Source: Escherichia phage FCWL1. From it: DNA of 49,336 nt. The position numbers and the translations under genes are program-made. Below, piece after piece: positions 5,960-49,194 of this stretch (position 1 is the first letter of the stretch; each line of letters opens with the position of its first letter). The stretch lies in the sequence record PP558327; one strand, given 5' to 3'. Below the pieces are notes generated by a model. The model worked only from the letters and a program-made list of their open reading frames with translations, was not told the origin of the DNA and made no database searches.

Positions 5960-6532
5960 ATGAAAACAGCTATCATTTTAAACGGCGCACCTGGAGCGGG
6001 AAAAGACACTATCGGATGCATCCTTGCTGACACTTACGATCACGTAGCCTTGCGCAGCTTCAAAGCGCCAATGTTTGAGATTGCCAGGGCAATCCTGGGT
6101 GAAGCTAACTACGAGTATTTCATGTTCTTGTATGAGGACCGTCGATATAAAGAAGAGCCAGCATCAATCCTGAACGGTAAAAGCCCGCGCCAGTTTATGA
6201 TCTGGATTAGCGAGGAAGTCATCAAGCCGCAGTTCGGAAATCGCTTCTTCGGTATGCGAGCGGAAAGCAAGGTGAAAGAGTCGCACTCCCTTTCGGTATT
6301 TACTGATGGTGGATTCAAAGACGAAATCTTGCAGATGATTGAAGGTGATATCCAGGTCAAGCTATGTCGAATACATCGCAACGGTTGCAGCTTTGATAAC
6401 GACAGCCGCGACTATATCTATCTTGACGACATGATCGGGGTTAACGGTTATCAGGAATGTGACTTCTTTTCTGTCGAAGGTCATCCAGAAATTACCGCTC
6501 AGCACATAGCCGCCACGTTCATCAATAAATAG
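5960..6532 (+). CDS. P-loop nucleotide kinase (dNMP kinase-like)
   Basis: Walker A GAPGAGKDT at N-terminus; NGKSP motif; 190 aa. Confidence 0.55.
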   Translation: MKTAIILNGAPGAGKDTIGCILADTYDHVALRSFKAPMFEIARAILGEANYEYFMFLYEDRRYKEEPASILNGKSPRQFMIWISEEVIKPQFGNRFFGMRAESKVKESHSLSVFTDGGFKDEILQMIEGDIQVKLCRIHRNGCSFDNDSRDYIYLDDMIGVNGYQECDFFSVEGHPEITAQHIAATFINK

Positions 6533-6742
6533 ATGACGGTATCAACTGATAAGTTTTTCACTTGCACTAAAACTTCTGAAGTATTCGAACTGGTTCATAC
6601 TGATAATGGTGATTTCATGCATGACGGTTGCGACGTTTTCATTGAAGTGAAAGAAAGCGACTATGACGACGGAGTTTATTACAGCCCGGCAGTTAACACG
6701 CAGTTTTTTACCCCGATCGAGGAAGATGGAGAAGAGGCATGA
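6533..6742 (+). CDS. hypothetical acidic protein (69 aa)
   Basis: ORF abutting kinase stop. Confidence 0.4.
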   Translation: MTVSTDKFFTCTKTSEVFELVHTDNGDFMHDGCDVFIEVKESDYDDGVYYSPAVNTQFFTPIEEDGEEA

Positions 6743-8320: not shown

Positions 8321-8845
8321 ATGAGTGAACATAAAAACGCTCCCGTTGTTCAGGGAGGTAATTTCAAAGAGCTATACAAGAAAAAGTTCGGCACTGTTCT
8401 TGCTAAGAATCGGGCAATGACGCCTGAGCAACTATTCGATCTGTCAGTTAAGTATTTCGAATGGGCTGAAGACAATGCGATCAAGGCTTCTGAGTCTGCC
8501 AGCTTTCAGGGTGGCGTTTATGAATCGCTAGTTCATAAGCCGCGCGTCTTCACCTGGACCGGATACCGACTATTCATCGGTGCAAGCGAGGCCGCAATCA
8601 TTAAGTGGAAGCGAGAGGAAGAATACAGTGAGGTTATGGAGTTTGTGGAATCGGTAATCAACGAGCAAAAATTCCAGCTTGCCGCCAACGGTGTTATTAA
8701 CGCCTCATTTATCGGTAAGGATCTCGGAATCGACAAGCCAGCCTCAATCAATATCGAAAACTCGTCAGCTTCCGCATCGACCGCTGTCGCCACTACTGAG
8801 GACGCAATGAAAGAGGCTGTAAACAGTATTCTTGACATGCTTTAA
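8321..8845 (+). CDS. terminase small subunit
   Basis: 174-aa protein directly upstream of terminase large subunit; RBS AAAGAGG; helical N-terminal region typical of small terminases. Confidence 0.55.
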   Translation: MSEHKNAPVVQGGNFKELYKKKFGTVLAKNRAMTPEQLFDLSVKYFEWAEDNAIKASESASFQGGVYESLVHKPRVFTWTGYRLFIGASEAAIIKWKREEEYSEVMEFVESVINEQKFQLAANGVINASFIGKDLGIDKPASINIENSSASASTAVATTEDAMKEAVNSILDML

Positions 8846-8883
8846 CGTTACGGGCGCGCAAGCGCCCATACAGGAGAATTGAT

Positions 8884-10452
8884 ATGATTCAATGGGAAGA
8901 ACTCGACGCAACTCAGAAGTTGGCGATCAAAAAAATGAGCGAGGCCAATTTCGAAAAAATGATTCGGATCTGGTTTCAGCTTATGCAGGCTCAGCAGTTC
9001 CAGCCTAACTGGCATCACCTTTACCTATGTCACGAAGTGGAGGAAATTATTGCAGGCCGACGCGGTAACACTATCTTTAACGTCACGCCAGGCTCCGGTA
9101 AAACTGAGGTGTTCTCAATTCACCTTCCGGTGTACGCAATGCTCAAGTGTAAAAAGGTGAGAAACCTTAACGTGTCGTTTGCCGACAGCTTAGTTAAGCG
9201 TAACAGTAAGCGTGTCCGTGAGATTATCAGCAGCAACGAATTTCAAGAGCTATGGCCTTGCAAGTTCGGTACATCGAAAGACGAGGAGATGCAGGTTCTT
9301 AATGAAGACGGAAAGGTTTGGTTTGAGCTAATCTCCGCAGCGGCTGGTGGTCGTATTACTGGTTCGCGTGGTGGGTACATGATGCCAGGATTCTCAGGTA
9401 TGGTAATGCTCGACGATATCGACAAGCCTGATGATATGTTCTCAAAGGTTAAGCGTGAGCGTACGCACATGCTATTGAAAAACACCATTCGATCCCGTCG
9501 TATGCATAACGAAACGCCAATTATCGCAATTCAGCAGCGACTACATGCTCAGGATTCAACCTGGTTCATGATGAATGGCGGGATGGGTATTGAGTTTGAC
9601 CAAATCTCAATCCCGGCGCTGGTGACGGAAGAATACGGAAAGACACTTCCTGATTGGTTGCAGCCTTACTTTGAGCGTGATGTTTTATCGTCTGAGTATG
9701 TAGAATTGGATGGCGTTAAGCATTACTCTTTTTGGCCCAGCAAGGAAAGCGTTCACGACCTGTTAGCCTTGCGAGAAGCTGATCAGTACACCTTTGACTC
9801 TCAGTATCAGCAGAAGCCGATCGCGCTTGGTGGCTCCGTGTTTAACTCGGAGTGGTGGACCTATTACGGCAGCAGCCTTGACGCTGACGAGCCAGATCCT
9901 GGTAAATATGATTACCGTTTTATCACAGCAGATACCGCTCAGAAGACGGGTGAGCTAAACGACTACACGGTCTTTTGTTTATGGGGTAAGAAAAACGATA
10001 AGGTTTACTTTATCGACGGCATTCGCGGCAAGTGGGAAGCGCCTGATATGGAGAAACAATTTACCGCCTTTGTGAATCAGGCATGGAGGCACAATAAATC
10101 AATGGGCGTGCTTCGCAAAATCTACGTGGAAGATAAAGCGAGCGGAACGGGCTTGATTCAGAACTTAAGGAAAAAGACCCCGATCTCAATTACACCATTG
10201 CAACGTAACAAAGATAAAGTTACCCGAGCGATGGATGCGCAGCCAGTTATTAAGGCCGGGCGTGTAGTTCTTCCAGAAGAGCACCCTATGCTTGCGGAAA
10301 TCATCGCAGAGCATAGCGCTTTCACATATGATGACACACATCCGCATGATGACATTGTCGATAACTTCATGGATGCGGCGAACATTGAATTGCTGACTAT
10401 TGACGATCCTATTGAGCGAATGAAGCGACTTGCCGGGATGGTTAAGCGGTAA
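8884..10452 (+). CDS. terminase large subunit
   Basis: 522 aa; ATPase Walker A-like VTPGSGKTE, Walker B MVMLDDIDKPDD; C-terminal nuclease-like acidic residues; position before portal. Confidence 0.85.
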   Translation: MIQWEELDATQKLAIKKMSEANFEKMIRIWFQLMQAQQFQPNWHHLYLCHEVEEIIAGRRGNTIFNVTPGSGKTEVFSIHLPVYAMLKCKKVRNLNVSFADSLVKRNSKRVREIISSNEFQELWPCKFGTSKDEEMQVLNEDGKVWFELISAAAGGRITGSRGGYMMPGFSGMVMLDDIDKPDDMFSKVKRERTHMLLKNTIRSRRMHNETPIIAIQQRLHAQDSTWFMMNGGMGIEFDQISIPALVTEEYGKTLPDWLQPYFERDVLSSEYVELDGVKHYSFWPSKESVHDLLALREADQYTFDSQYQQKPIALGGSVFNSEWWTYYGSSLDADEPDPGKYDYRFITADTAQKTGELNDYTVFCLWGKKNDKVYFIDGIRGKWEAPDMEKQFTAFVNQAWRHNKSMGVLRKIYVEDKASGTGLIQNLRKKTPISITPLQRNKDKVTRAMDAQPVIKAGRVVLPEEHPMLAEIIAEHSAFTYDDTHPHDDIVDNFMDAANIELLTIDDPIERMKRLAGMVKR

Positions 10453-32475: not shown

Positions 32476-33981
32476 ATGGCTTTATATCGACGCGGTACTG
32501 CATCAATGGATGCAGACGGAACGGTTCACGGAACCGATACAAAATGGAAAGACCAGCTTGCTCTTATTCGCGTAGGTGCAACTATCGTGTTCCTTGAGCA
32601 ACCAATTAAGCTAGCTGTGATTAGCGATATCGTTAGTGATACAGAATTAAAGGCTATCTCTACTGATGGTCAGACTGCCGATGACGGTAAGTATGTGATC
32701 CTACTTAATGACTCTCTAACCGTTAACGGATTAGCTCAAAACGTCGCCGAGACTCTTCGATACTATCAAAGCAAAGAGACTGAGATTGCGGCAGCTATAG
32801 ACCTGATAAATCAGCTTGATATGAATAAACTTGAGCAAATAGTTGCTGATGTGAATCAGGCGAAATCTGATTCTCAAGCTGCGCAAAATCAGGCTGAATT
32901 AGCGCGTGACGATGCGGTAAGCTCAAAAGATGCGGCTGCGGTAAGTGCTCAAGAAGCAAAAGACGCAGCTAACAGCATCAATGCTGAAAATCTTTTAACT
33001 AAGGATGGCAATTTAGCTGGTCTTGAGGATAAAAAAGAGTCAAGAAAAAATATTGGGTTAGGTGAAAATGATGCTGTTAACTTTCTTGCTATTAACACCA
33101 CTGGCGCTATAGGTGCAGGAAGGAATTCATGGGACGGTTCTAGCTGGGGTAGTCAGTCCATATTGTCATCATTGATGATTATGTCACCTGATGGAATATC
33201 TACGCCAGGTATTTACGTCAGAAAAGAACGTAGCGATAATGGTTATGCTGGGGCTTTATTATTTTATGAGGGGGCAAACTACTTCGAGACTAACAATAGA
33301 TTCAGAGCTAATCAGTTTTTATGCCAGAAAACATCTATGGGTTACAACCAGATGTGGTCTGCTTCATGCTTCCAGGGTAATGCTTACACCGCTGATAGTG
33401 GTGCTGAAAACTATCAATCACTTATTGCTGGATCGTGTGGCACCAGAGGTCAGGGATACGTTGGCGGCGTAGCATTTGGCATGATGACTACGGGTAATCC
33501 TGAATGGCCCAGGGCACAAATATCAGTAGGCACTCAAGATAGGGATGGAGCAGGCAATATTGGTCTGCAAATGCATTTCAGGTTTATGGCTTCAGGGCAA
33601 ATATCTTACGCTGGACCGCAAGGGGCTGGAAGTTTCCAACAGGTTCCGGCATCTGACAGAAATATAAAGCACGGCATAAAGGATGATGAATCAAGCATTG
33701 CATACAACAACATAAAATCAATGAGATTTAGGAACTTTATATTTAACGATGATGAGCAAGAAAGGGTAAGGAGAGGTGTTATAGCTCAGGAGATAGAAGA
33801 GATCGACAATCTATATGTTAAGAGAAGGGTGTATGAGAGCCACGAGCTAAACGGGCCAAAAGTTGAAAGGCTTGAGCTTGATACAACTCCTTTATTGCTT
33901 GACACTATGAGAGCTTTACAGGATACAATAAAGAAAGTTGAAGAGTTACAAGAAGAGATAAAAATGTTGAAGTCCAAATGA
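32476..33981 (+). CDS. side tail fibre with C-terminal intramolecular chaperone (peptidase S74-like) domain
   Basis: C-terminal ASDRNIKHGIKD...IAQEIEEI... coiled-coil matches auto-cleaving chaperone domains of tail fibres/endosialidases; start placed after terminator (track ORF 32275 over-extended across ssb). Confidence 0.65.
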   Translation: MALYRRGTASMDADGTVHGTDTKWKDQLALIRVGATIVFLEQPIKLAVISDIVSDTELKAISTDGQTADDGKYVILLNDSLTVNGLAQNVAETLRYYQSKETEIAAAIDLINQLDMNKLEQIVADVNQAKSDSQAAQNQAELARDDAVSSKDAAAVSAQEAKDAANSINAENLLTKDGNLAGLEDKKESRKNIGLGENDAVNFLAINTTGAIGAGRNSWDGSSWGSQSILSSLMIMSPDGISTPGIYVRKERSDNGYAGALLFYEGANYFETNNRFRANQFLCQKTSMGYNQMWSASCFQGNAYTADSGAENYQSLIAGSCGTRGQGYVGGVAFGMMTTGNPEWPRAQISVGTQDRDGAGNIGLQMHFRFMASGQISYAGPQGAGSFQQVPASDRNIKHGIKDDESSIAYNNIKSMRFRNFIFNDDEQERVRRGVIAQEIEEIDNLYVKRRVYESHELNGPKVERLELDTTPLLLDTMRALQDTIKKVEELQEEIKMLKSK

Positions 33982-34002
33982 AATATAAACTCCTTAAGTA
34001 AA

Positions 34003-34017
34003 TAGCACGAATTGCTA
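34003..34017. promoter_or_regulatory. palindrome TAGCA-CGAAT-TGCTA upstream of primase gene
   Basis: Perfect operator-like palindrome just downstream of tail fibre stop. Confidence 0.45.
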
Positions 34018-34081
34018 AACACAGATTTTATCATCGCGCCACGAGTCTTGCAACGGGCAATAAAAAACCGCCCGAAGGCGG

Positions 34082-35002
34082 ATGATGTTTCAGAAAGAGG
34101 ACGTTTTGCCGTACATGAAGGGGTTATGGCGCGAGGCTTTCCAATCAATCTGCGGATTGCCGAATGATGTTTTTAATAAGAAACACCAACCTTGCCCTAA
34201 CTGCGGGGGTAAGGACCGCTTTCGCTGGACTGATAACCTTAACACTCCGGGCGACGGCGGTGCGATCTGCAACTCATGCGGTAACGACTCTGGAGTCGGT
34301 TGGTTGATTAAATTAACTGGTATGCCGTACAGCGAATGTATAAATATCCTGGGAAGATTTCTCGGCAAGGTTCCGCAGGAATACATTGTCAAGGTCAACA
34401 AAAAAGCGCGAAGAACTCCGGTAGCTGGCGTCAATGTTATGATGGCAGAACACGAGGCAGTGATGAAAGTTATGGAGCGCACAGAGAAGCGCATAAACAC
34501 ACCTCTAAGCATGTTTGAGTCGCTACCTACTGAATCATTCGACGTTGGCGTAAAACGTCGAGAGGATGGCGGCGAGAGTGTATTTCACACCATACCATGT
34601 CAACTTGTACACGAGGACGGTCTTGATGAAGAGTTTTGCAATATTTTGATTATTGATGAGGAGGGTAGGGAGTCATTTTATGCAAAGAAATACACAAGTT
34701 GCTCGGTTGCCGTGACTGGTAAAACTGAAAAAGCGATCTACTTATGCCTTAATTGGATTGATGCTCAGCATATTGCATTTCACACAAAGCAAGAGGTATG
34801 GGCCTGCTTCACTCCTGAAAATCTAGAAATGGTTGCGTACAGATACAAGGGAGATCGGGAGGTAAGGGTGGCGTGCGAACCATCTGATAAAGAAACTTTA
34901 TACATGGCAGACGACAGACAATTAAAAATAATCATCCCGAATCAGGGAGGATACCGCTCAGGAATGCAAGCTAAGTTATTCTCAGCAAGTGATCTACTAT
35001 AA
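34082..35002 (+). CDS. primase-type zinc-ribbon protein (putative DNA primase)
   Basis: CPNCGGKDRFRW...GDGGAICNSCG Zn-ribbon typical of phage primase N-termini; start codon uncertain (hairpin directly upstream, no SD). Confidence 0.5.
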   Translation: MMFQKEDVLPYMKGLWREAFQSICGLPNDVFNKKHQPCPNCGGKDRFRWTDNLNTPGDGGAICNSCGNDSGVGWLIKLTGMPYSECINILGRFLGKVPQEYIVKVNKKARRTPVAGVNVMMAEHEAVMKVMERTEKRINTPLSMFESLPTESFDVGVKRREDGGESVFHTIPCQLVHEDGLDEEFCNILIIDEEGRESFYAKKYTSCSVAVTGKTEKAIYLCLNWIDAQHIAFHTKQEVWACFTPENLEMVAYRYKGDREVRVACEPSDKETLYMADDRQLKIIIPNQGGYRSGMQAKLFSASDLL

Positions 35003-35051
35003 AAATTCTTCGTTCACTTCCAGATCTCCAAAATAAAAAACGCGTAGAAGG

Positions 35052-35531
35052 ATGTTAACCCGCTACGCGTCGTTTGTTATGAGTATTCAACGTATCGCAG
35101 AGTCAACTGGTGAAATCGATAAACGTCACATCAATGGTAACAACGGAACACGACGCGGTAAAGATAAAAAGCCTCGACAGCGCTGCGGCTTCTATATTCA
35201 TAAAGAAGAAACACGCGCCGGATTGCGAGCGCGACTTGATGCGCTTATCGAATATTATGGTGGCCCTGCGGCCTGCGCAAAAGCTCTAAAGGTTAGCAAT
35301 CAGACGGTGCAAGGCTGGAAAGAACGCAACATGATTTCGTGGCAAGGTGCTGAAGCTGCGCATCGTGCTTACCGACGACAGGGGTGTAAAGGATTTCGTG
35401 CCGCATGGTTGCGATTCGACCTGAAGTTTGACGGTAACGGCAAGTGCCTTGAGAAGCGATGCAAGAACAAGAAATTTATGCGCGTCGTGAAGAAGGAAGA
35501 TATCGGGACGACCAATAGCATTTTTAGTTAA
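35052..35531 (+). CDS. HTH DNA-binding protein (Cro/YdaS-like), candidate regulator
   Basis: Segment YGGPAACAKALKVSNQTVQGWKERNMISWQGAEAA matches Cro/YdaS-type helix-turn-helix pattern; start uncertain. Confidence 0.4.
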   Translation: MLTRYASFVMSIQRIAESTGEIDKRHINGNNGTRRGKDKKPRQRCGFYIHKEETRAGLRARLDALIEYYGGPAACAKALKVSNQTVQGWKERNMISWQGAEAAHRAYRRQGCKGFRAAWLRFDLKFDGNGKCLEKRCKNKKFMRVVKKEDIGTTNSIFS

Positions 35532-39921: not shown

Positions 39922-41073
39922 ATGTCACAAGCTAAAATCACTACCGAACAACTTGTCGAAGAGCGCATGAACGGCCTAACACTTCGCGAGATCGCGGAAA
40001 AGTACGGTATGCACATTCGAACTGTTGAAGCTCGCCACGCAAAGTTGGCAAAAGAAGGTCACTTCCACGGTAACGAGCATGTTGCTAAGAACGTACCGGA
40101 AGGATTCATGGTAAAAGGCACATCAACGATGATTCGCGGCGATGGGACCGAGGTGGTGCGCTGGGTTAAGACCGATCAGGACCGTGAGAAGATTGCAGCA
40201 ATGATGGAAGCGGCGCGTATTGCATTCTGTGAAGATCTGCCGCGAGCAAAGCCAACTGAGCTACTAACCTCACAAGGGCTTACTACAGCGATGGGTAAGC
40301 TGGCACTCTATCCGGTATTCGATCTTCATATTGGCGCGCTTGCTCATAAGCATGAATGCGGAGAGAACTATTCTACCGATGTAGCGGAAAAAGTGCTGAG
40401 TGACTTCTTTAATTACGCGATCGATATTGCTCCGAACGCAGAGAAGGCTGTTCTGTTAATCGGCGGTGACTTCCTGCACTCTGACGGACTTGATGCAGTT
40501 ACTCCGGCAAGCGGTCACGTTCTTGATCAGGATTCACGATATGCTAAATTGGTGCATGTAGCGATTCGATCGGTGCGACGAGCTATAGACAAAATGCTGA
40601 CGAAACACAAAGAGGTCGAAGTTCAGGTTATCGAAGGAAACCACGACCAGGCCGGGATGATTTGGTTACGCGCAGCAATGGCAGCATACTATGAAGACGA
40701 GCCGCGAGTATTCGTTGACGTCAGTCCTATGATTCTGCATAAGACTCGTTGGGGAAATACCTTGTTGGGATACACTCACGGGCACACTATGAAAAAGGCA
40801 GACACGCGACTTGCAGCGATGGCAGCAGATTTCCGATCGGATTTCGGCGAGAGCAAGTATGTGTATACTCATAGCGGGCACTGGCATCACCAGACAATCA
40901 CTGAGCACTCGCTAGGTATTGATGAAGTACACGGTCAGTTAGGCGCGAAAGATGCATACGCAGCACGCGGAGGGTGGCGCTCATATCGCCAGGCGGCGGT
41001 AATTGTTTACGATAAGCAGTTTGGTGAAATCGGTCGATTCATCTATCGTCCAGAAATGACAGGATCGCACTAA
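39922..41073 (+). CDS. N-terminal HTH fused to calcineurin-like metallophosphoesterase
   Basis: HTH-like LTLREIAEKYGMHIRTVEARHAKL; phosphoesterase motifs DLHIG, GGDFLHSD, GNHD, GHTM, GHWHH. Confidence 0.6.
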   Translation: MSQAKITTEQLVEERMNGLTLREIAEKYGMHIRTVEARHAKLAKEGHFHGNEHVAKNVPEGFMVKGTSTMIRGDGTEVVRWVKTDQDREKIAAMMEAARIAFCEDLPRAKPTELLTSQGLTTAMGKLALYPVFDLHIGALAHKHECGENYSTDVAEKVLSDFFNYAIDIAPNAEKAVLLIGGDFLHSDGLDAVTPASGHVLDQDSRYAKLVHVAIRSVRRAIDKMLTKHKEVEVQVIEGNHDQAGMIWLRAAMAAYYEDEPRVFVDVSPMILHKTRWGNTLLGYTHGHTMKKADTRLAAMAADFRSDFGESKYVYTHSGHWHHQTITEHSLGIDEVHGQLGAKDAYAARGGWRSYRQAAVIVYDKQFGEIGRFIYRPEMTGSH

Positions 41074-41107
41074 TTGATAAAAACGCCCGAAGGGATTCGG
41101 GTATAGT
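41065..41107 (+). promoter_or_regulatory. promoter cassette (degenerate palindrome, hairpin, TATAGT)
   Basis: 22-bp spacer with CCCGAAGGGATTCGGG hairpin; leader CATCGAAAACAAAGAGGAT. Confidence 0.45.
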
Positions 41108-41136
41108 AACCACATCGAAAACAAAGAGGATATATC

Positions 41137-41313
41137 ATGAAGCGAGTTAAGTGCATCCGAAATGACTCCAAAACACTTCCATTCCGCGTAAATCAGATCT
41201 ATAGTGTTGGTTATGATTTCGGTGGGGGATTATTTGAGATTTACGACGGGCGAGGTTCAGCAATTCAGGCTCCTCTGAACGGTAGCTATCTGGAATTTAT
41301 TGCGATAGATTAA
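41137..41313 (+). CDS. small protein (58 aa) of the dispersed KxxC repeat-domain family
   Basis: MKRVKCIRNDSKTLPFRVNQIYSVGYDFGGGLFEIYDGRG; below track threshold; preceded by promoter cassette and RBS. Confidence 0.4.
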   Translation: MKRVKCIRNDSKTLPFRVNQIYSVGYDFGGGLFEIYDGRGSAIQAPLNGSYLEFIAID

Positions 41314-41335
41314 CAATATCATTCATCACCTTACA

Positions 41336-41365
41336 GGCTGGCATGATTTACATGCTAGCCTTTTT
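41336..41365 (+). terminator. intrinsic terminator
   Basis: About 10-bp stem GGCTGGCATG/CATGCTAGCC + T5. Confidence 0.55.
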
Positions 41366-41431
41366 GCGTTGTATCAAGTAAATTTGAAGGTTAAAATCGA
41401 CTCACTTGTTCAAAAAATATATGGTGAGATT

Positions 41432-41647
41432 ATGAAAGAATTTTTAACAGCAGCTACGTCAAGCACGGGCGGTGCTTCATTAGTCGGGGCCGCTACCGGG
41501 CAACTTTATATTGCTGGCGCTACATTCATTTGCTTTCTGCTTTTTGGTGCCTGGGGTGCATACTGGAAGTATCGTGATAGTAAGGCAATTCAGGAAGCGT
41601 TAAACGATGGCGATCTAAATAAGGCGCTTAAGATCAGGGGGAGATAA
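41432..41647 (+). CDS. holin (pinholin-like, two weakly hydrophobic TMDs)
   Basis: 71 aa; Gly/Ala/Ser-rich TMD1 ([15 protein letters not shown]) and hydrophobic TMD2 ([19 protein letters not shown]); immediately upstream of endolysin with overlapping stop/start. Confidence 0.55.
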
Positions 41648-42135
41648 TGAGCTTAAAAAATAACGTTATAGGCGCATCGATCGGGGCTGCTTTGACGTTG
41701 ACACCCACCCTACTGGAACGAATCGAAGGTATAGAATACGAGGTGTATTACGATATAGCCGGAGTCCCTACCGTATGCAGCGGAATAACCGGGCCGGACG
41801 TCATACCTGGTAAGAAATACACTAAGCGAGAATGCGATGCATTGCTGATAAAACATATCGGCGTCGCTCAGCGATACGTTGACAAAAAGGTGAATGTTGA
41901 TATTCCGGTAACGATGCGCGCGTCACTGTACAGCTTCACTTTCAACGTTGGAACTGGCGCGTTCGGATCTTCTACAATGCTTAAGCTAATAAATCAGAGT
42001 AAGCACAAGGAAGCGTGCAATCAGTTATGGCGATGGGTATACTACTACAACCCAAAAACCAAAAAGCGAGAAGTGTCTAGAGGACTCAAGAACCGACGCG
42101 CTGAAGAATACGCGTATTGCGTTAAGGAATTATGA
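41647..42135 (+). CDS. SAR endolysin (T4-lysozyme-like muramidase, GH24)
   Basis: N-terminal Gly/Ala-rich signal-anchor-release segment [19 protein letters not shown]; catalytic E-8x-D-5x-T pattern ([16 protein letters not shown]). Confidence 0.75.
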
Positions 42136-42536
42136 TGAAACTGAAGAAAACGTGCATTGCGATTACAGTGGCTGTTGGTGTTATTTCTCTATCCGGTTGC
42201 TCTACGGCATCTGCCCTGAGCGGTTTAATCGGATCTAAACCGGAAGTTACAGCACAAATCGGAGAGGAGAACACAAAGCAATTAGCAGGAGTAACCGCAA
42301 AATCCGAAGATAAGCGAGATGTTAAAGTTGAGAAGTCCAATGTAGGAAAGATTGACTCTTCCTTGAAGAAGTCAATTGAAGTGTCAACCATTAAGGCTAA
42401 CACGGTTAACGCTGAAAGCATCACAATAACAAAGCCAGAAAACTGGTACGATGCAATTGTAGGATGGACTCTCGTTTTCATTGGCCTATTGCTGGTTTAT
42501 TTTTCAATTCGTAAGGACGAAAAAAAAGGAGGCTAA
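42132..42536 (+). CDS. unimolecular spanin (OM lipoprotein signal + C-terminal IM transmembrane helix)
   Basis: Lipobox LSGC near N-terminus and C-terminal [21 protein letters not shown], as in the phage T1-type u-spanin; ATGA overlap with endolysin. Confidence 0.7.
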
Positions 42537-42551
42537 GCCTCCTTTTCTTTT
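42520..42551 (+). terminator. terminator hairpin (AGGAGG...CCTCCT) + T-tract after lysis cassette
   Basis: Stem-loop containing spanin stop codon, followed by TTTTCTTTT. Confidence 0.5.
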
Positions 42552-42595
42552 GCGACAAGGAGGGGGAGTTACTCCTTCACGTAAAAAGGTACAAA

Positions 42596-42638
42596 TAGCA
42601 CTTTTTGTTAAAACACCCGATCTCGCATCGGGTATATT
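42596..42638 (+). promoter_or_regulatory. promoter cassette (TAGCA-CTTTT-TGTTA, hairpin, TATATT)
   Basis: 22-bp spacer with CCCGATCTCGCATCGGG hairpin; leader CATCGAAACGAAACG. Confidence 0.5.
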
Positions 42639-42672
42639 TGTTTCATCGAAACGAAACGACCTGAAGGAAAAC

Positions 42673-42891
42673 ATCACGGCTAACAAATTTTTAGTAGTTC
42701 GCGTTTACAATCACTCAAACGGTACTAGCAGTGAGATTCCTACTCTTTACAGTAAAGCTGATGGGTGGACCGAAGAATCAGCGGTAGCTAACGAGAAGAA
42801 GGTTGCTGAGATGTACGGTGACACTTGCGAGTTTGAAGTTCGAGAATATGCAAAACTCACTAACGAGAGTTACATGTGGGCAGATGCATAA
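42673..42891 (+). CDS. hypothetical protein with apparent non-AUG start (ATC/ACG) or start-codon mutation
   Basis: Conserved cassette and GAAGGA SD present but the codon at the expected start position is ATC-ACG; ORF open to 42891. Confidence 0.3.
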   Translation: MTANKFLVVRVYNHSNGTSSEIPTLYSKADGWTEESAVANEKKVAEMYGDTCEFEVREYAKLTNESYMWADA

Positions 42892-42927
42892 AGATTATGC
42901 TCGCTTTCGTTACTGGCCCTCATTGAA

Positions 42928-43362
42928 GTGAGTAACAGACTCAACAACCCTTGCATGCTGCTTCTTCTAGATCTGTTCATATTCTGCGAAGGTTACGACA
43001 AATACACTCGACAGCACATAGCGAAATTTATATACGCCCACAAGGAAAGTGAGCGATTTGCTAAGGCTGCTGGAATGACTCGCCGTGAATTTACAAGCGC
43101 GCTATCTAAGGAGTTTTGCGCTCGTTGCGTGACTGAGGGTTACTTAGATCGCAAGGATGGAGTTTACTGGTGCAAGGGAAAGATTAAGCGCCCGGTAATG
43201 ATGAAGCTGATGTGTATTGATGGCTACAACAATCGGTATACGTGGGAAATGATGCACATTGGAGAGATGAGTGATGAAGATTTGTTTGGCGAACGTAGAA
43301 ACATTGATAGATCGGAACGTCGAATTGTGCGCAAGGCTCCAGCTTACGAAAGAAGAATTTGA
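42928..43362 (+). CDS. hypothetical protein (144 aa)
   Basis: GTG-initiated ORF; basic C-terminus. Confidence 0.4.
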   Translation: MSNRLNNPCMLLLLDLFIFCEGYDKYTRQHIAKFIYAHKESERFAKAAGMTRREFTSALSKEFCARCVTEGYLDRKDGVYWCKGKIKRPVMMKLMCIDGYNNRYTWEMMHIGEMSDEDLFGERRNIDRSERRIVRKAPAYERRI

Positions 43363-44935
43363 ATCAATGTTTAATATTAAGCCAAAACTGAATTACCAAC
43401 AGATTATTGAGATCGCCAATAGCACTGGAGTTAATCCGGTGGCGATCGCAATTCGTGAAAACAGCTATGGTGACTCAGTTTCATTTTGGCAAGATCCGAT
43501 CGATATCAATAGCGGCAACGATAAGTTCCCTCTGATTTCGTTAGGTGGCGATAACCTGGTATTCGAATATGCAAAAGCAAAAGCTGAATCAGTCCAGTTC
43601 CCGGTTTCATCCGCGTATGCTCATTTTATAGGTTGCATCTCAGCCGCGATGCTCGGGAAGTTTTGGGTGCAATATCACGGAGAGGAACAGCCGACCGCGC
43701 TTTACATGGTAATCAGCCAGCCACCATCAACAGGTAAGTCCGCGATTAACTCAGCGGCGATTACACCTATGCGTGCGGAGATTCAGCGACTGAATGAAGA
43801 GCGCAAAAAGGAACGTATTCGTTTAACCAGTCAGCTACGCCAGGTTGAGAAGGAAATCAAGAATGATCCTAAAGGAAACACGACTGCGGCACTATGCGAG
43901 GACAAAGAAAAACTGGAAGAGAAGATCAAAAAGATGGCTGATATTGTTTTTGCTGTATCAGATCCTACACCTGAAGGTCTTGCGAAAGTAGCCGCTGTTC
44001 AGGGCCACTTTTCCGTAATTTCTGATGAGGCAACGGCAATCAATACATTGCTCGGTCTTACGTATGGAGGTTCAGATAAGAAATCTAACAGTGAGCTTAT
44101 TCTTAAGGCGTGGGATAAAAACCATATGGAGGTCGCTCGCTCCAATCAGGACAACAACTTGTCTCTTTGCCCGGTTGGCTCGATCTGCGTAATTGCGCAG
44201 GATGAAACAATCAAAGGTATCATGGACGCAGGCCAACGAGGTATCGGTGTATCTGAGCGCTTCCTGTTAGTTCGCGAGGAACCGCTTTTAGGTACTCGTA
44301 TTCTTTGTGATGAAAATGGTGATGCATTGTATAAAGAAGTCGATCGAGGACTGGTTAGCAAATATTACAGACTCGTTCACAACATCATGAAGGAGGAAAA
44401 CGTTGTTCTCTCTGTAAGCCGTAATGCTATGCGTGAATTAAACCTTGCGCGTCAGGCGATGGAACCGGATTTCGCCGCAGGTGGGAAATACTCTCACTCA
44501 ATGCTACGCGGTCATCTCGGCAAGTTCGATAAGCACGCCTTGCGTATTGCTTCAGTTCTCCACACGATCAAGAATTGGGAGGGTGAATCACCGAACCGTT
44601 CCAACCGTGAGATTGACCTTGAAACAATGCAGGAAGCAATCATGATCTTCAATGAGCTTTCCAGGACTTATCTGTCGTCTGCCAGCGCTGCCGGGTATGC
44701 TGGTGATGAGGCTGAATCTCGTAAGCTGATTGATGTTATCACTGAGATCGCGAAGAAAAACAAAGGCCGCGCACCTATTCATAGCATCGTTGCAAAGTGC
44801 CGGAACGTTACGCCTTTCAACGGTCAACAGAAAGTATCTGAGCGAATCGATAGTCTTCTTATCACGCTCGAAGAGATGAACTACACTTGCCGGATTGATG
44901 ATATTGTTTTCATTAATCCTCGGCTGATGGGTTAA
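43271..44935 (+). CDS. large protein with deviant P-loop (QPPSTGKS), possible NTPase
   Basis: 554 aa; Walker A-like STGKS and hydrophobic-Asp Walker B-like IVFAVSD; start may be the internal ATG near 43367. Confidence 0.4.
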   Translation: MMKICLANVETLIDRNVELCARLQLTKEEFESMFNIKPKLNYQQIIEIANSTGVNPVAIAIRENSYGDSVSFWQDPIDINSGNDKFPLISLGGDNLVFEYAKAKAESVQFPVSSAYAHFIGCISAAMLGKFWVQYHGEEQPTALYMVISQPPSTGKSAINSAAITPMRAEIQRLNEERKKERIRLTSQLRQVEKEIKNDPKGNTTAALCEDKEKLEEKIKKMADIVFAVSDPTPEGLAKVAAVQGHFSVISDEATAINTLLGLTYGGSDKKSNSELILKAWDKNHMEVARSNQDNNLSLCPVGSICVIAQDETIKGIMDAGQRGIGVSERFLLVREEPLLGTRILCDENGDALYKEVDRGLVSKYYRLVHNIMKEENVVLSVSRNAMRELNLARQAMEPDFAAGGKYSHSMLRGHLGKFDKHALRIASVLHTIKNWEGESPNRSNREIDLETMQEAIMIFNELSRTYLSSASAAGYAGDEAESRKLIDVITEIAKKNKGRAPIHSIVAKCRNVTPFNGQQKVSERIDSLLITLEEMNYTCRIDDIVFINPRLMG

Positions 44936-44992
44936 CACAATAAACTCCTTGGTTGACGGTGTAAATGATACACCGCCAATGGTACACGCGTT

Positions 44993-45007
44993 TTGCAAAA
45001 AGTGCTA
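44993..45007. promoter_or_regulatory. palindrome TTGCA-AAAAG-TGCTA abutting start codon of 45012 gene
   Basis: Operator-like site ends 4 nt before ATG; no canonical SD. Confidence 0.4.
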
Positions 45008-45011
45008 TTGG

Positions 45012-45428
45012 ATGAAATCCATCAAACTTAAATGTACTTCCGCAGATAAAATCACAGGATTTGAAGTAAACAACCTGTACAAAGGTCGTGAGCGCTATGA
45101 TGGCACTCGCGAAGTAAAATTAAAATGCGGAAAGTATTTAAAACTTGAAAAGCATGATGAATTACAGATTCACGGATCTGATGAAATCTTCTTCGCGAAG
45201 TTCGCTGAGTTGAAAACAAAGACGCTCAAGTGCACCGGGCTTGACCATCGTAATCCGATGAAAAAATCATTCAAACTTGGCAAGCGTTACCAGGTGGAAA
45301 GCGGTCGCGCTCTCGGCGGCGTAGCTGGTTATATTTTTGATGAGGATGGTTGTCGTTGGACATTGTTTCGCGAAGAGATCGGTTTTAGCATAGCTGACGG
45401 CACAACCTTTGAGGCCAAATACTTATAA
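45012..45428 (+). CDS. protein with two copies of the KxxC repeat domain
   Basis: IKLKCTSADKITGFEVNNLYKG and KTLKCTGLD...KLGKRYQV...YIFDEDG match the 4167/7312/41137 pattern. Confidence 0.45.
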   Translation: MKSIKLKCTSADKITGFEVNNLYKGRERYDGTREVKLKCGKYLKLEKHDELQIHGSDEIFFAKFAELKTKTLKCTGLDHRNPMKKSFKLGKRYQVESGRALGGVAGYIFDEDGCRWTLFREEIGFSIADGTTFEAKYL

Positions 45429-45492
45429 TGCGTTAGCTCCTGATTGGTTATCTTGAATAAGGTCACTTTATCAAATGACCTTACGGCAATAT

Positions 45493-45507
45493 TAACAAAT
45501 CGTGCTA
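45493..45507. promoter_or_regulatory. palindrome TAACA-AATCG-TGCTA abutting ATG 45509
   Basis: Operator-like site ends 1 nt before start codon. Confidence 0.4.
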
Positions 45508-45508
45508 T

Positions 45509-45721
45509 ATGGAACAGGATAATTTCTGGACTCGTTATTTTGCAGCGCTCGATGCCGGGCTTGGTGCGGAATGGTGTATCAAGGTTGCATATAAAGAAAT
45601 TACGCTTGACGACGCGCTAGGGAATATGGATATGGACGCAGAAAGTGAATATAATCCCGACTTCGATATGCCAGGCGATGATACTGGTGATAATGACGAC
45701 GACGATTATATTCCCTGGTAA
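45509..45721 (+). CDS. small highly acidic protein with SSB-tail-like C-terminus (DDDDYIPW)
   Basis: 70 aa, about 30% Asp/Glu; C-terminal DDDDYIPW resembles SSB tip DDDIPF. Confidence 0.45.
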   Translation: MEQDNFWTRYFAALDAGLGAEWCIKVAYKEITLDDALGNMDMDAESEYNPDFDMPGDDTGDNDDDDYIPW

Positions 45722-45724
45722 TAA

Positions 45725-45949
45725 ATGAGCATTAAAGTTGAGAATATCATCAAGCATCTTAACGCAAAAGGCCGTGTAGTTATCAAGATGGATAAGTCTT
45801 CCGGTTTTATTTCAATGACGGTAACTAAGACGCGTAACGGAAATAGCGTTATCGGAAGTGTACCGGGATCTCGACTGATAAATGCAACAGATGCGGATGT
45901 TCGCGCAACGCTTGAGGATAACTCGATTTACATTAATTCATGGAGCTAA
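45725..45949 (+). CDS. hypothetical protein (74 aa)
   Basis: ORF 3 nt after previous stop. Confidence 0.4.
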   Translation: MSIKVENIIKHLNAKGRVVIKMDKSSGFISMTVTKTRNGNSVIGSVPGSRLINATDADVRATLEDNSIYINSWS

Positions 45950-46011
45950 TTTTAATTCCTTTGTTTTGTTTGGTGTGTGAGTAATATACCTTACTCACTA
46001 TTTATTGTCTT

Positions 46012-46026
46012 TAGCAATTAGTGCTA
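46012..46026. promoter_or_regulatory. palindrome TAGCA-ATTAG-TGCTA abutting ATG 46027
   Basis: Perfect half-sites; preceded by 8-bp hairpin GTGAGTAA/TTACTCAC. Confidence 0.4.
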
Positions 46027-46347
46027 ATGAACCACACTTATAAAATCACAACGAAGTCACCGAAGATTAACGGAAGCACGGTTGCGGCGCTTAATAACGC
46101 GGCAGCAATCCACGAAAAAAACATCATGGAGCGCGTGAAGGCGGCAGTAGGCCGATTCTATGGAATCAACGCCGACATTGCTGACAGCAAGCGACTGTTC
46201 AAATACGTGCCAGGTCATCCATATAGCCGGATGATTGATATTAAGCATGATAAAGAACTGGTTCGAATAGGTTCGCTTAGCATTGACGAGTTTGACCATA
46301 GCATTAACCTTGTGACGGCGTATCAAACCTGGGACGGTAAAAAATGA
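46027..46347 (+). CDS. hypothetical protein (106 aa)
   Basis: ATG immediately after palindrome. Confidence 0.4.
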   Translation: MNHTYKITTKSPKINGSTVAALNNAAAIHEKNIMERVKAAVGRFYGINADIADSKRLFKYVPGHPYSRMIDIKHDKELVRIGSLSIDEFDHSINLVTAYQTWDGKK

Positions 46348-46503
46348 TTTATATTCACACTTTCTATACTGGCAAATTTAACAGCGTAAAAAATGTTCGC
46401 GTTTACGATAGTCACCAAAAAGCAATGATGCAGAAAGTAGTTCTAGGTGGAACAATCAAGGAGTGCCAAGTAATTTCCGAGTACTGATATTCCCCCTAAC
46501 CAG

Positions 46504-46875
46504 ATGCTTAAACAATTCGTAGACCTGGACTTCTCAGCAAGCACAGCAATCCAGACTGACGAGAAAGAGAACGTAGCGATCGAGAACATTGCGCGCAAGA
46601 TTTACAACAAGCAAGAGAAGGCAGTGAGAGCCGCTCTAAGCGCTTATTACGGTGTAAGTGATGCAATGGAGTGCGTGAACCGAGTAACGCGCGTGGCGGA
46701 CCATTCTGGCGCGTCTCGTTTCGTAGATAACGATACTGGAGAGATGATAATCCAGCTTAACAATCCATCAATGCGCACTGAACTTGGCAATATTGCATTG
46801 TGGGGTGTGGCTAACTACTCAATCACCGTCAACTCCTGCATTGCGGGTCGCGTCAAGGAGGCATTATATGAGTGA
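46504..46875 (+). CDS. hypothetical protein (123 aa)
   Basis: ORF; weak resemblance to 46027 product. Confidence 0.4.
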   Translation: MLKQFVDLDFSASTAIQTDEKENVAIENIARKIYNKQEKAVRAALSAYYGVSDAMECVNRVTRVADHSGASRFVDNDTGEMIIQLNNPSMRTELGNIALWGVANYSITVNSCIAGRVKEALYE

Positions 46876-47068
46876 TAATATTTACCGCGTGGTTGCGATC
46901 TCACGCAGGACGCAAAAGAGCGTAGTTGCCTACATGGGAAATGGCGCAATTGAGGCAACAGACGCATTCGAGCTACTGAAGAATAACGAAGGATTTATGA
47001 ACACGTTCCGCGTTAGACTTGAGCGTCTTGAACCTGTTATCATTGATGAAGCGAGAAAGCTATCCTGA
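46868..47068 (+). CDS. hypothetical protein (66 aa)
   Basis: ATG overlapping upstream stop. Confidence 0.35.
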   Translation: MSDNIYRVVAISRRTQKSVVAYMGNGAIEATDAFELLKNNEGFMNTFRVRLERLEPVIIDEARKLS

Positions 47069-47127
47069 GGTGATTGCCTCGTTTTCTGTTGATGGGAGAA
47101 CTATAGCAGCCCTCCCGCATTTTCGTT

Positions 47128-47142
47128 TAGCAAAAAGTGCTA
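47128..47142. promoter_or_regulatory. palindrome TAGCA-AAAAG-TGCTA abutting ATG 47144
   Basis: Same sequence as site at 105-119. Confidence 0.4.
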
Positions 47143-47143
47143 T

Positions 47144-47329
47144 ATGAAAACAAAATTAGTTCATAAATCAGAAATCAAGATCGGCGATACCGTGATTCAC
47201 AACGGAGAGCTTAAAACTGTTGGCAAGGAGTCAATAACCAACGATGAATTTATGGGTCTGTTATTGTTCGGGGACTCCTATCGACTTGGTTACAAAATGG
47301 TTGAGCTTGTTGAAGATGTAAAATTCTAA
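47144..47329 (+). CDS. hypothetical protein (61 aa)
   Basis: ATG 1 nt after palindrome. Confidence 0.4.
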   Translation: MKTKLVHKSEIKIGDTVIHNGELKTVGKESITNDEFMGLLLFGDSYRLGYKMVELVEDVKF

Positions 47330-47357
47330 TTACTGGCCTGTTAAACCGATCGAGTTT

Positions 47358-47372
47358 TAACAAAAAATGCTA
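47358..47372. promoter_or_regulatory. palindrome TAACA-AAAAA-TGCTA containing ATG 47367
   Basis: Start codon lies inside the palindrome. Confidence 0.35.
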
Positions 47373-47726
47373 TCAGCAATCGCTTTGAAAAATCCACGAG
47401 GATATAAGGAACGTATCAGCTTCGTTTTGGCAGACTTGCCGCCCAGCTTGTTTTGCTGTGCAGAGTACCCGTCAGGCAGGCTTACAGGTTTTCTCTCGGG
47501 CATGACAAAATCGATGGAACCAAAATTTGAATGTGCCGTGCAATGCATTAGCGTTAGCACCGACAGCTTCACGAATCAATCAGTGTATGAGATCTACCTT
47601 ATTGATGGTGGGTACTTCGCTACTGACAATCAGCAAAATCAGATCGGCGTTTTCCGCTCAATGAATGGATGGGATCGCTTCCTGACCAATAACGGGCAGA
47701 CGGTATTCAAAGAGGTAACGAAATGA
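47367..47726 (+). CDS. hypothetical protein (119 aa)
   Basis: ORF; overlaps downstream gene by ATGA. Confidence 0.4.
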   Translation: MLSAIALKNPRGYKERISFVLADLPPSLFCCAEYPSGRLTGFLSGMTKSMEPKFECAVQCISVSTDSFTNQSVYEIYLIDGGYFATDNQQNQIGVFRSMNGWDRFLTNNGQTVFKEVTK

Positions 47727-48271
47727 AATTAATCTGGTCGCTATTTGACGGTTCCGGTCTTGCAGGTCATGAACTGGCTAAGCAAGGTCATAAGGTGATG
47801 TGCTTCAACTTTGACGGAGCCGATCACGGAGATTACGAAAAGTACAATGCCAGAGTGGAGCATCCGAACATTGAGTATGTGAACGTGTTCATTGATGAAA
47901 CGTTCGAACGTGATGCTATCGCTGGCGTGTATGGCAAGCCGGATTTCATTATGGCTTTCCCGCCGTGCACTGACCTGGCTGTTAGTGGTGCGCGACACTT
48001 TGCCAGCAAGCGTGAACGCGATCCGTTATTCCAGGAGAAGGCTGTCGCTAGTGCCCGGATTGCTGCGAACATTGGAGATAGCCTGGGCGTGACTTACATC
48101 ATTGAGAATCCGGTGAGCGCCCTGTCGTCTGCGTGGAGAAAACCAAATCACTCCTTCAATCCCTGGGAGTATGGCGGCTATCTTCCTGAGAATGACTCAC
48201 ACCCCTGGTTCCCGATGTATATTGCGCCGCGAGATGCTTACCCGAAGAAAACTTGTCTTTGGGACCTCTGA
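47723..48271 (+). CDS. truncated DNA cytosine-5 methyltransferase-like protein (182 aa)
   Basis: C5-MTase-like motif I LFDGSGLAG (FxGxG), motif IV-like FPPCTDLAVSG (PC), motif VI-like IIENP (ENV); too short to contain a target-recognition domain. Confidence 0.45.
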   Translation: MKLIWSLFDGSGLAGHELAKQGHKVMCFNFDGADHGDYEKYNARVEHPNIEYVNVFIDETFERDAIAGVYGKPDFIMAFPPCTDLAVSGARHFASKRERDPLFQEKAVASARIAANIGDSLGVTYIIENPVSALSSAWRKPNHSFNPWEYGGYLPENDSHPWFPMYIAPRDAYPKKTCLWDL

Positions 48272-48430: not shown

Positions 48431-48451
48431 TATATTCGCTGATAGGTGAAA

Positions 48452-48494
48452 TAGCACTTTTTGTTAAAGCCCGGTCGAGCGGATCGGGTATTAT
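48452..48494 (+). promoter_or_regulatory. promoter cassette (TAGCA-CTTTT-TGTTA, hairpin, TATTAT)
   Basis: 22-bp spacer with CCCGGTCGAGCGGATCGGG hairpin; RBS CAGAGGAAT; gene at 48527. Confidence 0.5.
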
Positions 48495-48526
48495 CTTCTC
48501 ATTGACACGATACAGAGGAATCGAAG

Positions 48527-48721
48527 ATGGAAACGCAAATTGACGTAGTGGTTGTTCAGCGAGACTCAACTCATGAAAAGGGTCTGTTCAAGAAAGGAAC
48601 CGAAATCACGATCGACCTTGAGGATATGGTTGCGTATCACTCTGGCCTCACTTGGAACGTGGTGCGCGTAGGCAGCGACTACAAACTCAAAGGCTTTAAC
48701 ACTTACTTTGCGGAGGTTTAA
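48527..48721 (+). CDS. hypothetical protein (64 aa)
   Basis: ORF after promoter cassette. Confidence 0.45.
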   Translation: METQIDVVVVQRDSTHEKGLFKKGTEITIDLEDMVAYHSGLTWNVVRVGSDYKLKGFNTYFAEV

Positions 48722-48723
48722 TT

Positions 48724-49194
48724 ATGGCGACAATTACCGTATTTCTTGCTAAAGATGAGCTTGATGGCGAAATGTCATTCTTCGCGTTTGAGCATAAAAC
48801 CGGCTCGCACTGGCACACTTACAGCCATTACACGGTTATCTCAATCGAAGCGTACGACGGCGAACTGCTCACTGATAAACTGAGTAATTTCATTGAAGCC
48901 GTTAAAGCTAGCGGCGGCTGCGAGTGGAAGGAAGATCACGAAGTTATGCGAATGTTTGAGATGGTCAATCCGGTTCGCCTTGAGTCGTTCGAGCTTGATG
49001 CTAATGTGACTATCAAGGTGAGAAAGTCGGGTGAGTTATTGCCAGGGATGCGTGTACTGACTGGTTACTCTGGCCGTAAGGTGTGGCGCACTGTATCCAA
49101 GATTCGCCAGCGCTCGGCAACATGCTATAGCGTATTCTTTGATGATGGTTGGAATATGATGTCCGGTAGTGAGGTAAAGTATCTCACCAAATAG
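48724..49194 (+). CDS. hypothetical protein (156 aa)
   Basis: ORF 3 nt after previous stop. Confidence 0.5.
   Translation: MATITVFLAKDELDGEMSFFAFEHKTGSHWHTYSHYTVISIEAYDGELLTDKLSNFIEAVKASGGCEWKEDHEVMRMFEMVNPVRLESFELDANVTIKVRKSGELLPGMRVLTGYSGRKVWRTVSKIRQRSATCYSVFFDDGWNMMSGSEVKYLTK

Follow-up and report, generated by a model that had tools for sequence, protein, structure and literature searches.

Gene 11 of phage T1 is the last gene of a lysis cassette and the prototype of the unimolecular spanins (u-spanins), its product combining an outer-membrane lipoprotein signal with a C-terminal transmembrane domain (PMC6139136). The wild-type protein carries the lipobox LSGC and complements the lambda RzRz1 defect (PMC6139136; Kongari et al., 2018). 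The periplasmic domain of u-spanins has been reported to be beta-rich rather than coiled-coil, and a periplasmic Cys occurs in no u-spanin (PMC6139136). According to a review, the u-spanin mechanism is still unresolved (PMC7830690). All but two members of the T1gp11 family are found in cassettes with a pinholin and a SAR (signal-anchor-release) endolysin (PMC6139136). The KanT1 paper describes the T1 module in the same terms, as pinholin, SAR endolysin and u-spanin (PMC13164509), and the Sushi announcement reports this architecture as 'like T1' (PMC4559738). The TLS paper speaks of 'proposed' class II pinholins and of T1 gp12 as a 'predicted' SAR endolysin (PMC11447400); the pinholin and SAR labels of T1 gp13 and gp12 are predictions in the literature too.

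The window analysed here, the whole 49,336-nucleotide sequence of Escherichia phage FCWL1 (record PP558327), contains three open reading frames at 41432-42536, all on the + strand, as established from the ORF list and the raw sequence. They encode a 71-aa holin (41432-41647), a 162-aa endolysin that is a T4-lysozyme-type muramidase of the phage 21 R type (41647-42135), and a 133-aa spanin (42135-42536; the listed ORF begins at 42132 and gives 134 aa). The first-pass annotation had described a three-gene cassette with overlapping stop and start codons, and the overlaps are plain at both junctions: TAATG, with a 1-nt overlap, between holin and endolysin, and ATGATGA between endolysin and spanin. 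Purine-rich ribosome-binding sequences lie 5' of all three starts (GGTGAG for the holin, GGGGGAGA for the endolysin and AAGGA for the spanin).

In a megablast search, Escherichia phage phiD2-2, a member of Tunavirus (Drexlerviridae), matched the cassette region at 100% identity, and dozens of T1-like phages of Escherichia and Shigella matched it at 94-99%; the records of the latter label the genes holin, endolysin, and u-spanin or Rz-like spanin. The stretch 41432-42536 is almost certainly the lysis cassette of a T1-type siphophage (Tunavirus), gene-for-gene orthologous to T1 13/12/11. The holin, endolysin and spanin assignments of the first pass agree with published descriptions of the T1 cassette (PMC6139136, PMC13164509, PMC4559738, PMC11447400). 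With the pinholin/SAR endolysin/u-spanin description of T1 already in print, the cassette is a known one and ordinary for T1-like phages. It had also been put forward as an alternative lysis pathway and a lineage marker; it does mark the Drexlerviridae lineage, but the pathway is not new.

The spanin is identical to T1 gp11 at 103 of 134 positions over its full length (77%), which places it within the T1 gp11 family as delimited by Kongari et al. (2018; at least 40% identity over at least 40% of the length), and it matched PHROG 1804 (Rz-like spanin) with an E-value of 3.2e-47. Its N-terminus consists of MKLKK, a hydrophobic core and, as in T1, the lipobox LSGC, with the lipobox Cys at position 22 followed by Ser-Thr; the residue at +2 is Ser and not Asp, in keeping with sorting to the outer membrane. 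Towards the other end, a helix scoring 2.33 on a 19-residue Kyte-Doolittle window precedes the short basic tail RKDEKKGG, and there is no Cys between the lipobox Cys and this helix in FCWL1 or in eight relatives. The lipobox and the C-terminal transmembrane helix reported in the first pass were thus both present on re-inspection. The likeness to the single-component spanin first described for T1 holds as well, since the FCWL1 sequence is that of a T1-type phage. We regard the gene product at 42135-42536 as a u-spanin with high confidence; its predicted function draws experimental support entirely from T1 gp11, the 77% identical protein.

Two in-frame ATG codons are available for the start of this gene. 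In T1 and three other relatives the endolysin/spanin junction is TAATG, with the first of the two ATGs missing, which points to 42135 as the conserved spanin start (133 aa, 1-nt overlap). Judging from these junctions, translation is more likely to begin at 42135 than at 42132.

The endolysin is identical to T1 gp12 at 159 of 162 residues, and it matched the Pfam family Phage_lysozyme (PF00959, E 3.8e-33) and PHROG phrog_7 (E 2.8e-50); NCBIfam added nothing on the cassette proteins. The catalytic pattern E-8x-D-5x-T, picked out in the first pass, could be assigned to E27, D36 and T42. The closest solved structures are those of the phage 21 SAR endolysin in its tethered (3HDE, E 7.1e-34) and active (3HDF, E 5.4e-33) states, followed by E. 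coli RrrD (4ZPU, E 6.2e-33). The alignment to 3HDE begins within the endolysin N-terminal segment, and this segment aligns with the R21 SAR domain. An AlphaFold2 model built from the single sequence had a mean pLDDT of 38.5 and was not interpreted.

The N-terminal segment itself, N5-L23, comprises 19 uncharged, Cys-free residues, 47% of them Gly, Ala, Ser or Thr, with K4 before it and E24-R25 after it. Residues 1-26 hold no Cys at all, as is also the case in all relatives compared. The first-pass annotation had called this N-terminus weakly hydrophobic, and its maximum Kyte-Doolittle scores of 1.68 (17-residue window) and 1.13 (19-residue window) agree; the corresponding values for RrrD are 2.29 and 2.11. 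It is the least hydrophobic segment of the nine Drexlerviridae cassettes compared and is marginal as a membrane anchor.

This endolysin type turned up in 1049 records in a tblastn search of annotated phages. Most are Drexlerviridae infecting Klebsiella, Escherichia, Salmonella or Shigella, and the label 'SAR endolysin' appears in several. A search for related loci in viral contigs returned only near-identical Tunavirus loci, and diversity was drawn from the tblastn results instead. Seven diverged cassettes were aligned, representing Hanrivervirus, a Klebsiella phage, Kyungwonvirus, Rogunavirus, Braunvirinae, Nouzillyvirus and Tlsvirus. Their endolysins are about 48-66% identical to the query. 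In all seven the catalytic triad is present, and in the N-terminal part a Lys/Arg is followed by a stretch of 15-19 residues without charge or Cys, with a conserved Pro near its end and usually an acidic residue next. The sequence of the stretch varies, with 17-residue hydropathy ranging from 1.68 to 2.25 and FCWL1 and T1 lowest. Its character is kept while its sequence varies, which suggests that selection acts on membrane-related properties and not on the residues as such. A lipobox ([LV][ST]GC) and a C-terminal helix are present in all nine spanins, and their periplasmic domains contain no Cys.

These comparisons bear on whether the endolysin enters the membrane at all. The protein could instead be a cytoplasmic lysozyme, its N-terminal segment too weak for Sec, paired with a single-helix holin (N-out, C-in) that makes large holes, and with the role of the spanin unchanged. 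The 19-residue score of 1.13 falls short of the classical threshold of about 1.6; the T1 record marks transmembrane domains in gp13 (one) and gp11 and none in gp12; and u-spanins are found with both endolysin types (PMC6139136). However, a charge-free stretch of 15-19 residues, preceded by Lys/Arg and followed by an acidic residue, has been kept at 48-66% identity despite drift, most relatives score higher than FCWL1 (1.76-2.25 on the 17-residue window), and the segment aligns with the R21 SAR domain. Furthermore, the group that defined SAR endolysins classes T1gp11-family cassettes as pinholin plus SAR, with two named exceptions (PMC6139136). A cytoplasmic endolysin is rather improbable on this evidence, and it keeps what weight we give it because of the weak N-terminal hydropathy and the single-transmembrane notes in GenBank.

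The segment could also be read as a cleavable signal peptide, processed by signal peptidase I, with the activity of the enzyme restrained by the membrane potential or some other factor. K4 supplies a positive start and the small residues G13-A14-A15 could resemble a cleavage site, but the hydrophobic core before such a site would amount to only about 6-7 residues, and Ala-x-Ala is not conserved in the relatives. The segment also reaches to three residues before Glu27 and corresponds to the part of R21 that refolds into the active enzyme, so its removal would probably damage the endolysin. We consider cleavage very unlikely. By homology to R21 and by the conserved character of its N-terminus, the endolysin is predicted to be, and probably is, a SAR endolysin.

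The holin is identical to T1 gp13 at all 71 residues and matched PHROG 2877 (holin) with an E-value of 1.9e-38 over residues 1-71 of 71, which makes it a member of the T1 gp13 family. Pfam and NCBIfam contained no significant match to the holin or to the spanin, giving only sub-threshold chance matches (DUF3262, Acyl-thio_N) or none. Residues F4-W45 form an uncharged stretch of 42 residues, within which a weak Gly/Ala/Ser/Thr-rich segment (about 4-23) is followed by a strong transmembrane helix (25-45; the L25-A43 window scores 1.81 on the Kyte-Doolittle scale); beyond it is a charged C-terminal tail with a net charge of +3. In the 18 residues leading up to the strong helix, Gly, Ala, Ser and Thr make up 83% and the mean Kyte-Doolittle score is about 0.4. 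The equivalent 18 residues of EssD, a stretch that includes the inter-helix loop, score -0.06. The Gly/Ala-rich first transmembrane domain proposed in the first pass was therefore found as a weak segment, but one rich in Ser and Thr too and not only in Gly and Ala. If the holin does have two helices, the loop between them is very short.

The holins of the relatives are likewise 71 aa long, except for that of GS156 (74 aa), and acidic residues bound or shorten the putative weak first helix in AKS96 and GS156. Two further features of the family were noted. The motif FGxWGA(Y/W) is strictly conserved at the cytoplasmic end of the strong helix (residues 38-45, about 41543-41566), and the tail RDSKA...ALxxGD is common to all Drexlerviridae subfamilies sampled. 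A longer holin of 92 aa, starting from a TTG at 41369, is annotated in phiD2-2. This form was rejected because the TTG lies 3 nt past the T-tract (41362-41366) of a terminator-like hairpin and because T1 and the PHROG profile both use the 71-aa form.

A BLASTP comparison between the holin and EssD, a homologue of the phage 21 pinholin, gave no alignment at E <= 100, and the dual-start motif is absent from the holin gene. Having no detectable similarity to EssD/S21, the holin falls outside the S21 family and would at most work like a pinholin. Of the profile comparisons suggested in the first pass, those of the spanin with T1 gp11 (103/134) and of the endolysin with R21 (E 7e-34) gave matches, but that of the holin with EssD did not. 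The argument for the holin step, including the formation of pinholes, is drawn solely from layout and from context, with an R21-like endolysin encoded next to the holin; these moderately favour a class II pinholin that starts out in a two-helix topology. In GenBank, the T1 and AKS96 entries each give a single transmembrane domain in the holin. Should the T1-type holin be a single-helix protein (N-out, C-in), unrelated to S21 and controlling a SAR endolysin with an unusually weak anchor, it would represent an independently evolved variant of the depolarisation-triggered lysis route; we see this as an unlikely arrangement, if an appreciable one.

For the FCWL1 cassette we observed gene identity, homology, motifs and family conservation, and the explanation that fits it best, and probably the right one, is the whole phage 21-type route, including the SAR step. 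In this route the host Sec system would export the endolysin, whose weakly hydrophobic N-terminal segment would keep it tethered to the inner membrane in an inactive state. The 71-aa holin would build up in the inner membrane, trigger at a set time and depolarise the membrane. Upon loss of the membrane potential, the endolysin N-terminus would exit the bilayer and the enzyme would refold as in phage 21 R and cleave peptidoglycan; disulfide caging of the P1 Lyz type would have no part in this, as the N-terminal segment has no Cys. The spanin would be anchored in both membranes, with its lipidated Cys22 in the outer and its C-terminal helix in the inner one, and would disrupt or fuse the outer membrane once the wall meshwork was gone.

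Upstream of the cassette are a DNA-repair exonuclease homologue (T1 gp16; 39922-41073) and, on the + strand at 41137-41313, a 58-aa SH3-like protein of the SH3 clan (DUF7244, PF23896, E 2.2e-28), which is identical to T1 gp14 at 54 of 58 residues. The DUF7244 SH3-like protein, whose gene lies between the exonuclease and pinholin genes, has been proposed as a lysis-module accessory (PMC13164509, 2026), and it might be a fourth lysis factor here. A terminator-like hairpin identified by a terminator scan (41335-41366, + strand; 11 bp stem and 5-nt loop, then TTTTT), which folds at -18.2 kcal/mol (z -4.16), separates the DUF7244 and holin genes and suggests that the former may not be co-transcribed with the cassette. 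A simple scan of 40900-42750 found no sigma-70 promoter site. As a side observation on the exonuclease homologue, its N-terminus gave a weak helix-turn-helix-like signal (Sigma70_r4_2 and HTH_23, E about 0.01), and the match to Metallophos was only sub-threshold despite visible GDxxH and GNHD motifs.

At the downstream end, a second hairpin (GGAGGCU/AGCCUCC, 42524-42551) lies across the spanin stop codon, between a run of A and a run of T. It folds at -17.7 kcal/mol on the + strand (z -2.5) and at -19.0 kcal/mol on the - strand (z -4.0), and in sequence it is bidirectional-terminator-like. A terminator is annotated at the same place in T1, and on both strands in AKS96.

The arrangement of the genome around the cassette deserves separate mention. 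Relative to phiD2-2 (OR861627.1), whose arrangement is common to all other T1-like phages, the FCWL1 sequence is circularly permuted, and all 17 minus-strand genes of phiD2-2 have been individually reverse-complemented in place (e.g., 42549-48271, 32476-35531, 894-1127 and 48437-49194). Intergenic spacers keep their original orientation, and the boundaries of the flips fall mostly at CDS ends. Two pieces have also been exchanged, the GP16 gene at 6310-6543 of the record and the GP20-21 block at 8671-9428. Genes flipped in this way would lose their own upstream ribosome-binding sites. Rather than a natural genome, this appears to be a design that puts all genes on one strand, made in silico or by engineering; the lysis block at 41036-42551 is untouched by it.

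The flipped genes and moved blocks raise the question of whether the cassette is functional in this sequence, which would then be an artificially rearranged genome and not a natural isolate. Against this, 41036-42551 is an uninterrupted block, 100% identical to positions 1-1516 of phiD2-2 with the ribosome-binding sites and both hairpins included; within it nothing was seen that departs from natural T1-like phages, and we hold a non-functional cassette to be extremely improbable.

Some database entries drew attention in the course of these comparisons. In OR861627.1, at 334-1501, the endolysin and spanin are labelled 'hypothetical protein' and the holin is annotated from the upstream TTG (92 versus 71 aa). 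These labels are likely a mis-annotation, and the phiD2-2 GenBank record could be corrected from the present reading of the cassette. About 21 'Campylobacter phage' records with C. jejuni as host, each about 50 kb (e.g., MG065675.1), carry a Drexlerviridae-type endolysin of about 64% identity. That is unexpected for T1-like siphophages of enterobacteria, and a wrongly assigned host or contamination may lie behind it.

The value of the cassette is mainly one of annotation, in that it identifies the sequence as a T1-type (Drexlerviridae) phage; the FCWL1 sequence adds nothing new on pinholin/SAR behaviour or on the fusion mechanism of u-spanins. Among known systems, the lysis genes of phage 21 and DLP12 (S21 68/EssD, R21/RrrD and Rz/Rz1) supply a clear homologue of the endolysin, with the same triad and a Cys-free N-terminal segment. 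The FCWL1 segment differs in being shorter (19 versus 24 uncharged residues) and less hydrophobic, and it lacks the 6-residue linker before the catalytic Glu. The EssD-type holin also has 71 aa and a like layout, with one strong helix between a weak Gly/Ala/Ser/Thr-rich segment and a basic tail, but the FCWL1 holin has no detectable sequence similarity to it and no dual start. The outer-membrane step, shared between Rz and Rz1 in those phages, falls to one protein in FCWL1. Compared with lambda Rz/Rz1, the FCWL1 spanin is a single polypeptide without a periplasmic Cys and without sequence similarity, yet it is expected to fill the same role with the same pair of anchors, a lipid in the outer membrane and a helix in the inner one.

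The closest counterpart is the T1 cassette (genes 13, 12 and 11, listed as ST13, ST12 and ST11; NC_005833, 42878-43982). It differs from that of FCWL1 in the spanin, which has diverged in its periplasmic domain and its transmembrane helix (differences at 31 of 134 alignment positions) and whose start is preceded in FCWL1 by an extra in-frame ATG, and in an HNH endonuclease gene that lies between the exonuclease and gp14 genes in T1 and is absent from FCWL1. Gene order, protein lengths (71/162/133 aa) and the overlapping junctions are the same, the upstream gp14 (DUF7244) gene and the downstream terminator are shared, and the holin, endolysin and spanin are 100%, 98% and 77% identical, respectively, to their T1 counterparts.
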